Positions 45,050-52,073 of a stretch of 64,000 nucleotides of DNA are shown piece after piece (the stretch's first letter is position 1; each line of letters starts with the position of its first letter). Origin of the DNA: Balanoglossus misakiensis. Its lineage: Eukaryota; Animalia; Hemichordata. The stretch lies in the NCBI GenBank assembly GCA_040954595.2, contig CM082579.2, positions 2,059,908-2,123,907 on the forward strand, given 5' to 3'. The notes under the pieces are model-generated. The model searched no databases, was not told the DNA's origin, and was given only the letters and a program-made list of their open reading frames with translations. The translations under genes were made by a program, and so were the position numbers.

Positions 45050-48000
45050 TCAAACTTCCACCTCTAGATCTTGCGACACACGCGGTTCAAAGTATCGTTT
45101 ATGGTAATCCTGTAGTACTTCACACAGCGTGTGAAATGTCGGCCTATCATCAGGATTCTGCAAGCAAAGACACCGATGGAACGAATCATTACAGTAGCCA
45201 CATGGTTGTGTATGCAAAACATAGACCTGTAGCTTGAAATCTCACAAAATGTATACAAATGTACAGTCATAGTTTTGATTAAAGCGCAACACGTTTTTTC
45301 AGCTCCCTAACTCACCGCTTTCCAGCAATATAGCATGACGTTATACACAAGAGTCTGGCAAAACACTGGTCTCTTCAGTCGATAGCCTTTCTCCGTCACT
45401 TCATGAATGTACTGTGTGTTGGTCATACTTTCGTACGGGTGTTCTCCGCCGGTGTACATTTCCCATAAAAATATTCCTGCGAGAAGGATACAAGAATCTT
45501 TTTGGTCTCAAATTTTACTCCCAATTGGCAACCATGCCATCGGCAAAAGCCAGTATCCACGAAAGTTACAGTTTTTGTTTAACTCAGCATATATTCTAGT
45601 TTAATATAAAGCTTAACTTGTACTACTTGGCCAGCTGACCATTGCCAAAGCATGGCCAAAGTAATTAACCAAGTCTCGCGAGATCTTGCAATTTGCGGAA
45701 AATTATCTACTGAATTTGTTTCAGTGCGTATTTCATCAGTTTCCACGTGATGCGTCCTACATGATATCCAATAACCAAGAGAGAAGTTTGTATGAACTAA
45801 CCAAACGACCATACGTCCGACTTGCTGCTGTACTTGTTCTGCAGCAGTACTTCCGGTGAAGCCCATCGAACCGGAAATTTGGTTCCCCATGATGGAATAT
45901 ATTCGTCATCCATGACGTATCTGACGATGGCAAACGCAATTTACGAATTAAGTAAACTTAGTTAAGGTATTTGTGATTTCAAAACGAATAAAATCATACA
46001 GTTATTTTAAGGTTGGTAAAATCTGACGCAAGTTTGTCGATCAATAATTAAGGTTGGCTTGGCACCGGTTTGTCTGATATTGATTTTTTCGAGACCTGTT
46101 GGAATGTGTTTATGATTAAGTGGCGAAGAACCACCTGGCCTGGTTTAGGGTCACAGACACGAACATTTCGTCGAAGTCAGGATCTCTGAAAGCATCCCAG
46201 TCTTCAAGCGCGCATTTGCATGTATCAGGACTGAGTCTCGGGGGTTTTAATTCTATATGAAATCCCTCATGGTCGTTATTTGCCAAAGGGTCACACACAC
46301 TATGTAGTCTGATGATCGACACACGAGTCACCTGACAACTAAGTTCCCTTGTCACTTCAACAAAACTCCCCAATATTTTTTTTGTAAAAACAGCTGCGAA
46401 ACTCTGCGTGCGTACTTCGCCCACCTTGTGAGTCCAAAATCAGCGACCTTGACTGTCATGTTGTCCCCTACGAGGCAGTTACGGGCAGCCTGCCAACGAA
46501 AGAAATGATCCGTTTACAATTAAACCTTAGCGTTACTAAGGATCTTCTTCATACCCAGAGTAGTACAAACAAAGGTAATATCAAAGATCGTTTATCCAGT
46601 TTACAATATTTCTATCATACTGCAATTAGCATGTTTTTGACGCATGCTTAAAGCACCATTGTGTGAATTCATAGTTGGGGCTGGAATTCGAACAACTGAT
46701 TCATGTCGTCCTATATCTGGTGCTGCCTTAAAACTTATTCACACTTGTCCCATATTTTCTACGGTTATATAAATTGCTTCTGTGCTAAAAAAAATATTAC
46801 ATTACCAAATCTCTGTGAATGAAGTTCCTGGATTCTAAATAGGCCATCGCTGAACAGACCTGAATTGCCATATGCAAAAGTGTTGCAGGCTCGTTCAGTA
46901 AATGTGTCTTTGACTTCAAAAAATCCAGTAGACAACCTTGAGGGAGAGACATTTTCACGTAAATTTCATGCACAAATTCCCCAGAAAACGGAGACAAATT
47001 CAAAATTTCAAATTAAATTGATGTATCTATCAAAAGCTACTTCCACGTTCCCTTGATCTTTTTAATGTCTATTTATTGTGATGACACCACTGATCATGGT
47101 TGCGCGATATTTGCCGTTATCAGGTTGTCAAGCTGACGATTTCACAAATGACGATAGAGGTCATATGGGACACGGTACGGTATTATCTTCAAAATTTGTT
47201 CGTGATTTTTCTGGTGAAATCGTTTATGTGGCATTTTCAGGGGATTTCCCTTTACATTTACAAATCCGTTGACACCATAATAGGACAGAAAAATACAGAA
47301 TTAAAAGTTATTCTTTAAAATAGTGGTCAGCGGGGATAACCATCGCATTATAAATGTATGCTTTGGATAATTGCCAGGCCGGTCAACAAGTGAGTCAATT
47401 ATCATCATATGTGACTAATTATTAGGGGAAATAGAAAAAAACATATCCATCAAAGTATATTTGTTTGTTTAACGTCTAAACATACCTTGGCTCATGTACT
47501 CCATAACCAGGGAAAATGGCGGCTTTCTTGTACAGACACCGTAGAGACGAACCAGGTTACTGTGACGCAATTCTCTGTCAGGAGTAAACAATGTTTAATA
47601 GCAAATAAATATTTGCGTCAGTATGCAACATTTTGTTGTCAAATATCAAATTCTAAAATGCTCTGGCACACTTAATATGATTTTTCTTGTTCTCCATTCG
47701 TAATAACTGAACGCTCCCTAAATGGAATTCTTTGCTTATTTGAGCACAGTCCTGTGATTTGAGTGACGACATCAGAGAAGAATCTAGGCCGGTGCATTGC
47801 GTTGAGACCAGACCACTTCGTTGAAATGTGAACAACCGTAAAATTATTATTGGAGCAACAATGAACGGTTGCTAACGTAGCATGGGCGAAAGGTCATTCT
47901 AGGGTATCTGCCCAGTACCTCATAACACTGACTTCCTCCATGAATTTGCTGACGGACCAGGATTCCCTCTTCATCATTTTGATTGCTGCCAATTGACCAT

Positions 48001-51000: not shown

Positions 51001-52073
51001 GCGTGAATGCATTCTGATAAAGGTGATTCTGCGCATGCTTCACGCGTCCTTTCAGCCGCCATTTTCCCTTTCAAGATGTTGTCGAAAATCTCGAGTTCGT
51101 TGTCGCAAAGACTTGCGCCAAACCCCTTGGTATCGTACAGTTTAAACGCACACATGCCCGACAAACATTCGCAGACTTCGATGGTGTCGTGATCCTCGAG
51201 GAACATAGTTTTCCGTTCTATGGACAAAGAGAGAAAAGGGATTATAGAGTGTTGTTGTTGTTGTTGTTGTTGTTGTTGTTGTTGTTGTTGTTGTTGTTGG
51301 ATTGATTTAATTCGAAATTATATTTTAGGCTGACACTCACCCTTTGAAACGTTTTTAAAACAAGTCTCCACTGTGTATATGAAGCTACTCTTGCCGGCAC
51401 CGGGCAGACCAAACAGGCAGATTTTGACACAAAACCCGCGCTGTATTTCACTCATGTCTTTGCCATCAAAACCGAGTTTATCCCTGAACTGGTAATCGAG
51501 CAACTTCCGCCTTTCTTCGGTCGAACGGCGCTGCATTTGAGTGAAGGCATTCCTTTCTGCAACTTCTTTGAGCTCTTTGTCGTGTTGTGATTTTTCGTCT
51601 TGTAACTCTCCGTCATCTTCGCCTGTTTGAACAATCTGCCCTTTCTCGTCTACATAGAATTTTGAACATGCGTCCTGGACAGGGCCATCGTCCGGCTAAG
51701 AATAAAACATTAAAGAAACTTAAGTTTTAAGTTTAGGCTATTTTTCAGTGTTTTTGTTCTGTGTAATCTATCAACTTCAGTTTCTTGATATTAAAAATAC
51801 GTTGTCGTATATATATGAGATAGGTTTGTATGATTTTTTTCTTGACTTGTTTTCCGGACTTGAATTCATTCTACAGCAACAATGGTTGTTGCCCACACAC
51901 TTGTATGATCAAGCTGTCTATACCACTGTCAACGAAATGTTTTTGTACGTGGATTTTCTCGACAAACACAATGACTCTCACCGCTACATAAAATATCAAC
52001 AGAACTGTAGGCGTTGTATGCCGCGTCTTACCTTCTTGGCAGTTTTTGGGTGTCTCTTGGCGAAGAAAGGCAT
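45050..52073 (-). CDS. Gene B: chimeric IFI44-like GTPase fused to a Tec/BTK-family non-receptor tyrosine kinase (PRR-SH3-SH2-kinase), about 881 aa, 18 exons
   Basis: Exons: 52032-52073, 51341-51695, 50906-51217, 50638-50708, 50106-50412 (alternative donor ends the exon at 50139), 49808-49971, 49378-49550, 49185-49259, 48882-49013, 48437-48564, 48209-48250, 47919-48090, 47486-47574, 46806-46936, 46425-46489, 45802-45920, 45316-45476, 45050-45157. All phases are compatible with no internal stop. GTPase motifs: [23 protein letters not shown]. Tec-type motifs: [21 protein letters not shown] (SH3), GTFLVRPS (SH2), [53 protein letters not shown]. Each half is high confidence; the fusion junction is moderately high. 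Confidence 0.85.
48304..48380. repeat. Degenerate CAT/CGT/CAC trinucleotide tract in a gene B intron
   Basis: Directly visible low-complexity tract. Confidence 0.7.
51250..51299. repeat. (GTT)n microsatellite, about 16 units, in a gene B intron
   Basis: Directly visible. Confidence 0.95.

Follow-up and report, generated by a model that had tools for sequence, protein, structure and literature searches.

Whether an IFI44-like GTPase and a Tec-type tyrosine kinase are produced as one protein is the question raised by a locus of the hemichordate Balanoglossus misakiensis, which lies on the minus strand at 52073-45050 of the present stretch, a window of 64,000 nucleotides (nt) from contig CM082579.2 of assembly GCA_040954595.2. 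The original prediction joined the IFI44-type GTPase exons 1-5 in frame to the Tec kinase, and this is borne out by an uninterrupted open frame and by a matching protein from a second species. A scripted exon chain gives a predicted gene of 18 exons, in which 17/17 introns are of the GT-AG type with lengths of 118-549 nt, and the frame of 2643 nt encodes 881 residues with zero internal stops. The domain order of the product is an IFI44-like G domain, a proline-rich motif, SH3, SH2 and an intact Tec-type tyrosine kinase (Table 1). The G domain carries its motifs G1 (GLPGAGKSS) at residue 110, G3 (DTKG) at 161 and G4 (TCMD) at 245, and the downstream exons give Pfam matches to SH3 (PF00018), SH2 (PF00017) and kinase (PF07714). 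Judging from the sequences, we consider it very probable that the G domain and the kinase are made from one transcript.

The junction in two species

A phmmer search with exon 3 as the query against 1.84 billion representatives matched 2 proteins. One of them (P0002), a moth protein with a 13-fold repeat, was dropped as an artefact. The other, XP_070553852.1 (P0001), is a RefSeq protein of 894 residues from Ptychodera flava, to which exon 3 matches with an E-value of 5.9e-23 and 54% identity. Its RefSeq name is "tyrosine-protein kinase TXK-like", and its Pfam matches are kinase, SH2 and SH3 together with weak septin and MMR_HSR1 matches. The window protein is collinear with the P. flava protein end to end across the junction, and 520/881 residues are identical (59%). 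The kinase is the best-conserved domain between both species (193/252 identical, 77%), followed by SH3 (44/58, 76%), SH2 (63/91, 69%) and the G domain (114/211, 54%), while the tail and linker are ~31-33% identical. The first 14 residues are also kept in P. flava (z 6.9; 0/2000 shuffles).

The junction itself was examined on both sides. The tail encoded by exon 5 is kept in P. flava up to the donor (z 8.4; 0/2000 shuffles), and because it ends in KYSN in both species, the donor is placed at 50105, one of the two sites that the original prediction had left open. This donor also ranks first of 21 GT sites in 49980-50300 with a splice-site matrix, which was trained on 26 other introns assigned by the same analysis and serves as a consistency check only. 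The other site, 50138, was rejected, as its use would remove 11 residues whose KYSN end is kept in P. flava. The phase-1 acceptor at 49972 and the 134-nt intron that it closes agree with the coordinates predicted before, and an in-frame acceptor at 49966 is added here; with the same matrix, 49966 and 49972 rank first and second of 21 AG sites. These two acceptors are 6 nt apart and in frame, and a weaker third in-frame acceptor is present at 50023. Small linker isoforms arising from alternative junction acceptors are possible on this sequence.

Three points weigh against a single gene. The P. flava protein is a gene prediction too, the first part of exon 6 is no more alike in the two species than expected by chance (z 1.6; 157/2000 shuffles), and the fusion is known from two species only. 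No third fusion was found among 7990 scored candidates of 491-1565 residues, in which the 8 matches were the P. flava protein and 7 vertebrate members of the Tec family, all of which lack a G domain; relatives inside the 50% cluster of the P. flava protein, or split models, could be hidden from this search. Searches of a word index, which gave 428 candidates for exon 5 and 33 for exon 3, scored nothing at a low sensitivity that missed the P. flava protein too, and metagenome scans with exon 5 and the P. flava protein as queries revealed no relative.

Both models might accordingly have merged two adjacent genes, namely a GTPase that ends at the in-frame TAG at 50092, 4 codons past the donor, and a Txk-like kinase that lacks PH and starts independently. 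In-frame ATGs are present in intron 5 and exon 6, and a Tec kinase without a PH domain is known in Txk (PMC8662651, in excerpt). Against two genes, the phase and the junction are equal in two species that are 41% diverged, and the flanking exons are only 134 nt apart. The sole Met near the junction is residue 386 in the window protein and residue 384 in the P. flava protein; since these are unaligned and the next common Met lies inside SH3, there is no conserved start for a separate kinase. A stop <=4 codons from the donor is found in 9/27 introns of three models of the GTPase cluster described below, including the counterparts in both paralogs, where it lies 2 codons past the terminal phase-1 donor, and for this reason TAG 50092 does not point to the end of a gene. 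Neither AATAAA nor ATTAAA was found between 50420 and 48142, intron 5 included. A transcript end at this TAG, foreseen in the original prediction as an objection to the fusion, thus fits poorly with the paralogs and with the absence of a poly(A) hexamer 3' of the TAG, and we regard two merged genes as very improbable. The other objection foreseen there, an assembly misjoin near 50.0 kb, is practically ruled out because the independent assembly of the second species shows an identical collinear fusion; the window also contains zero N, and the GC content at third codon positions is alike on either side of the junction (0.53, 0.51 and 0.49).

The G domain and the kinase

Residues 60-345 of the P. 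flava protein, used as the query in the Atlas, match IFI44-named clusters with 0.94 in language-model features and with template-modelling (TM) scores of 0.73-0.76 over ~250 residues, and the clusters that come nearest (TM 0.87-0.89) consist of unnamed relatives from chordates and molluscs, not of IFI44 itself; this comparison has predicted models on both sides and no E-values, and is taken as a lead. The G-domain model, with a moderate predicted local distance difference test (pLDDT) score of 67.7, has a G-protein fold (Z 11-14) among which no GTPase family stands out, and the nearest solved sequences are septins (E 6e-4 to 0.02). No TLD match was obtained with Pfam in the P. flava protein or in the window exons scanned. 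Because TLDc is absent, the domain is termed IFI44-like and not an IFI44 orthologue. When a G-domain homodimer was predicted with guanosine triphosphate (GTP) and Mg, the score was 0.00, which is uninformative either way, and a whole-chain single-sequence AlphaFold2 model of the P. flava protein (pLDDT 35.7) was left unused.

The G motifs claimed earlier are all present in the window protein, and G1 and G3 are letter-for-letter equal in both species. The claim does not extend to G2 and G4 of the P. flava orthologue, in which the presumed G2 Thr (T144 of the window protein, assigned by alignment only) is Ala and the TCMD with the G4 Asp reads THSK. Both the G2 Thr and the G4 Asp are also present in paralog A, a neighbouring GTPase. 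Nucleotide binding by the G domain is likely from its motifs. The absence of the G2 Thr and the G4 Asp in P. flava weighs against a canonical guanine-specific switch; we hold it possible, though doubtful, that the kinase is controlled by the state of GTP or guanosine diphosphate (GDP) specifically. The family resemblance suggests that the fusion protein may have an innate-immune role. What the G domain of IFI44 does biochemically is poorly defined in general, and the main text of a 2024 review of IFI44L does not contain "GTP".

The kinase module is assigned to the Tec family by a ranking of bit scores, in which the best solved match is BTK with 396 bits, ahead of Abl with 311 and Hck with 266. 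The top matches of the SH3 exon are TEC, ITK and BTK, and the identity of the SH3-SH2-kinase part to fish Tec/Itk is 40-44%. Alignment with full-length BTK bears out the Tec hallmarks named in the original prediction, KPLPPTP and GCLL, the latter with C689 retained as the equivalent of BTK C481. The catalytic residues are intact and kept in both species, including K638, E653, HRD 728-730, DFG 748-750 and Y760 of the activation loop. By residue criteria (VAIK Lys, alphaC Glu, HRD, DFG and activation-loop Tyr), the module is predicted to be an active protein kinase. The earlier claim that PH and Btk-motif exons are absent also holds, in that the PH-TH regions of four vertebrate Tec N-termini, with the proline-rich motif left out, gave no match below E 0.5 in the 64 kb, the best being 0.88. 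A candidate PH remnant across intron 5 (fish Tec N-terminus, E 0.02) was rejected, the match being gone without the proline-rich motif. Because both PH and the Btk zinc motif are absent, this half is better described as a Tec-derived kinase module than as a canonical Tec kinase.

The contacts that regulate BTK are altered in the fusion. Both fusions have an SH2-kinase linker with 11 residues fewer than in vertebrate Tec/Itk, and the position of BTK W395 is occupied by Met in the window protein and by Leu in P. flava, in contrast to Trp in 4/4 vertebrate rows and BTK. The SH3 positions of BTK Y223, W251, P265 and Y268 are E, F, N and L, respectively, in both fusions. Among six rows, the changes at W251, P265, W395 and the linker are seen only in the two fusions, with a gap in the linker found in P0014 too. 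In BTK, Y223, W251 and Y268 of SH3 clamp P385 and T387 of the linker (PMC8260988, in excerpt); in the two fusions these residues are either replaced or missing. From the alignment, both the SH3-linker clamp and the W395 lever look weakened. Two observations call for caution in reading these changes. Y223 and Y268 are also changed in 3/4 fish Tec/Itk rows; furthermore, W395 is needed for BTK activity, which is abolished by its loss (PMC4807093, in excerpt), and the fusion kinase could therefore be weak with Met or Leu in its place. We also note that Y359 (in KYSN) and Y387 are conserved within otherwise variable tail and linker segments.

Possible control of the kinase

The PH-TH module of BTK recruits the kinase, inhibits it, and activates it by transient dimerisation that leads to trans-phosphorylation, and the module is still functional when fused to Abl (PMC4384635, in excerpt). 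On balance, we think that the G domain of the fusion probably serves as a replacement targeting and clustering module, controlling the kinase in place of PH-TH. The N-terminus encoded by exon 1 is a candidate membrane anchor. This MPFF-basic segment and the G domain would recruit the protein to a membrane or a partner, where it would cluster, and clustering would drive trans-phosphorylation of Y760 in the activation loop, in the way that PH-TH dimers act on BTK. A weakened internal clamp would leave control of the kinase to the new G-domain head, and Y359 and Y387 might act as phospho-docking sites. It counts against this scheme that dimerisation through PH-TH is a special property of BTK, which other Tec kinases do without (10.1101/2023.10.05.561114, in excerpt), so that clustering is only one option. 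Among dimerising GTPases (septins, GIMAP and Toc33/34), septins provide the nearest solved sequences, and septin, Toc33 and GIMAP folds match the G domain with Z 11-12; the similarity is nevertheless remote and no greater than that to many other G proteins, and dimerisation of the fusion G domain is hypothetical. A more specific version, which we put forward tentatively and hold to be rather doubtful, is a guanine-nucleotide-gated tyrosine kinase in hemichordates, in which the IFI44-like GTPase would sense infection or nucleotide state, dimerise and switch on the Tec kinase.

Two other explanations accept the fusion and assign a different part to its G domain. The domain could be a nucleotide-insensitive scaffold or an integrated sensor or decoy, i.e., a pseudo-GTPase, with the kinase triggered by a partner or a pathogen factor; in the sensor or decoy variant, the G domain would be struck by a factor with which a pathogen targets IFI44-like proteins. 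This would suit a G2 Thr and a G4 Asp that are not common to both species though the G domain is 54% identical, and it may suit the place of the gene among stand-alone paralogs; integrated-decoy genes often sit in clusters with stand-alone paralogs. The identity of G1 and G3 in both species nevertheless suggests selection for nucleotide and Mg binding, and all four G motifs are kept in the window protein, so that a pseudo-GTPase appears unlikely to us. Alternatively, control could be reversed or the kinase near-silent, in which case a weak kinase or SH2 adaptor would phosphorylate or dock its own GTPase tail and thereby regulate an IFI44-like effector. The loss in both species of W395, without which BTK is inactive (PMC4807093, in excerpt), is in line with such a role, as is the conservation of Y359 and Y387 amid variable segments. 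It is opposed by the conserved catalytic residues and Y760 and by the kinase being the best-conserved domain (193/252), and we rate reversed control as distinctly unlikely.

Origin, neighbouring genes and relation to known systems

The focal gene sits within a small GTPase cluster, in which paralogs A and B (Table 1) are models of our own prediction. Paralog A is 33% identical to the focal G domain over 296 columns and has 4/4 of its G-domain introns in common with the focal gene in position and phase, the terminal phase-1 intron being aligned within one residue. Paralog B and the focal gene have one internal intron in common; the terminal phase-1 intron of paralog B lies ~30 columns earlier. 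In both paralogs, what follows the terminal phase-1 intron is a small helical domain and not a kinase; these helical domains are weakly alike (E 0.01), and that of paralog A is without a confident Pfam match. As the last intron of both neighbouring GTPase paralogs is likewise of phase 1, their structure suggests that the fusion arose via exon shuffling, although the similarity of the focal tail to the tail of paralog A is within chance (z 1.4). A duplicated Tec gene would have lost its PH and Btk-motif exons, and this copy would have become attached at the terminal phase-1 intron of a GTPase in the cluster, displacing the C-terminal helical domain of the latter. The kinase half was not retroposed, as it contains 12 introns. 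Its exon sizes of 128, 172, 89+131, 65, 119 and 161 nt presumably resemble those of BTK exons 12 and 14-18.

Table 1. Features of the predicted fusion gene and its GTPase paralogs, in positions of the window.
Feature	Position	Strand	Description
Exon 1	52073-52032	-	ATG; hydrophobic/basic N-terminus (MPFF + Lys/Arg)
Exon 2	51695-51341	-	Acidic stretch, long helix, beta1, G1 P-loop GLPGAGKSS (~51410-51384)
Exon 3	51217-50906	-	G2 region (Thr144), G3 DTKG, G-domain core
Exon 4	50708-50638	-	G4 TCMD; THSK in P. flava
Exon 5	50412-50106	-	Final G-domain strands and helix; conserved tail with KYSN end; phase-1 donor 50105
Intron 5 (fusion junction)	50105-49972	-	134 nt, with phase-1 donor and acceptor; contains read-through TAG 50092
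Exon 6	49971-49808	-	Linker with conserved Tyr387; Tec proline-rich motif RKPLPPTP
Exons 7-8	49550-49378, 49259-49185	-	Tec-like SH3 domain
Exons 9-11	49013-48882, 48564-48437, 48250-48209	-	SH2 (FLVR Arg527 kept) and shortened SH2-kinase linker
Exons 12-14	48090-47919, 47574-47486, 46936-46806	-	Tyrosine kinase domain, part
Exons 15-18	46489-46425, 45920-45802, 45476-45316, 45157-45053	-	Tyrosine kinase domain, remainder
Stop TGA	45052-45050	-	End of kinase frame
Candidate poly(A) signals AATAAA	44541 and 44341 (span 44336..44541)	-	3' of kinase stop
Paralog A	39347-41727, possibly from 42073	-	Stand-alone IFI44-like GTPase (own model), TLDc-less, all four G motifs
Paralog B	52321-54992	+	IFI44-like GTPase (own model), head-to-head with focal gene, ATGs 248 bp apart

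Some further features of the cluster were observed. A candidate 4-codon first exon of paralog A at 42073 starts with Met-Gly, and myristoylation of its product is possible. The first exon of paralog B starts with Met-Gly-x-x-x-Ser, which we take to fit the myristoylation consensus, and its intron pattern before G1 differs. The 248 bp between paralog B and the focal gene are likely a bidirectional promoter. Trinucleotide microsatellites are present in homologous post-P-loop introns, CAA at 51250-51300 in the focal gene and GAT at 41060-41130 in paralog A, and the GAT repeat resembles a repeat at 5919-6005.

Elsewhere in the window, a probable two-exon gene at ~42650-44077 on the plus strand lies in the interval from paralog A to the kinase, to which it is convergent, and gave no Pfam match above the cut-off. 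Its C-terminus is CAIL, presumably a CaaX-type prenylation motif. A long open reading frame at 56344-57408 on the minus strand contains a TLC (TRAM/LAG1/CLN8) domain (PF03798, E 1.6e-8), and the same strand carries, at 1-~38300, the 5' portion of a gene that resembles neurobeachin/LRBA (DUF4704, E 5e-15). The vertebrate NBEA/LRBA and Tec-family genes belong, we assume, to a common 4/5/13/X paralogon, and the linkage of the neurobeachin/LRBA-like gene with a Tec-type kinase may be ancient.

The original prediction regarded the architecture as undescribed, and no account of it was found in the literature, where supplementary domain tables of PMC8662651 or of hemichordate genome papers could list it. 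The main text of that holozoan tyrosine-kinome survey (PMC8662651) contains none of the words "GTPase", "Saccoglossus" and "Ptychodera", and the main text of a Saccoglossus antiviral paper (PMC10210618) contains no IFI44, GTPase or tyrosine kinase. The fusion would thus be a new architecture built from known parts, of which the name of the RefSeq entry ignores the G domain.

Comparison with known systems shows what is shared and what is not. Like Tec kinases and BTK, the fusion has the KPLPPTP motif, the SH3-SH2-kinase order, the Cys481 equivalent and the activation-loop Tyr. Unlike them, it has a G domain in place of PH and the Btk motif, Met or Leu for W395 and the linker shortened by 11 residues; it further differs from BTK in the SH3 replacements of W251 by Phe and of P265 by Asn, and in a Met gatekeeper where BTK has Thr. 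Txk/Rlk is likewise without a PH domain (PMC8662651, in excerpt). The P. flava protein bears the name TXK-like, and no orthology to vertebrate Txk is implied. The N-terminus of Txk is short, Cys-rich (as seen in P0011) and palmitoylated, whereas the fusion has a G domain of 250 residues. The fusion resembles IFI44 and IFI44L in having an IFI44-type G domain by features and predicted structure. This is in contrast to its lack of TLDc and its connection to a kinase; an oyster protein consists of TLDc and MMR_HSR1 (PMC11682996, in excerpt). Roco proteins such as LRRK2 and DAPK1 also combine a G domain and a protein kinase on one chain (PMC7573214, in excerpt). The likeness is an analogy only, as the fusion has no COR match, it carries a tyrosine kinase (PF07714) of the Src-module kind along with SH3 and SH2 instead of the TKL-type kinase of Roco proteins, and its G domain is IFI44/septin-like and not Roc.

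The fusion wires a G domain to an enzyme with an easy readout, such that dependence on a nucleotide or a partner is measurable as autophosphorylation. The kinase has apparently been kept without W395, which is essential in BTK, and this bears on the activation of Tec kinases. Owing to the retained Cys481 equivalent, covalent BTK inhibitors might serve as probes. Were the kinase gated by guanine nucleotides, hemichordates would possess a Tec kinase that has discarded both its lipid input and its internal clamp, an independent phosphotyrosine counterpart of the Roco/LRRK logic, and it would provide a built-in reporter of the action of IFI44-type G domains.

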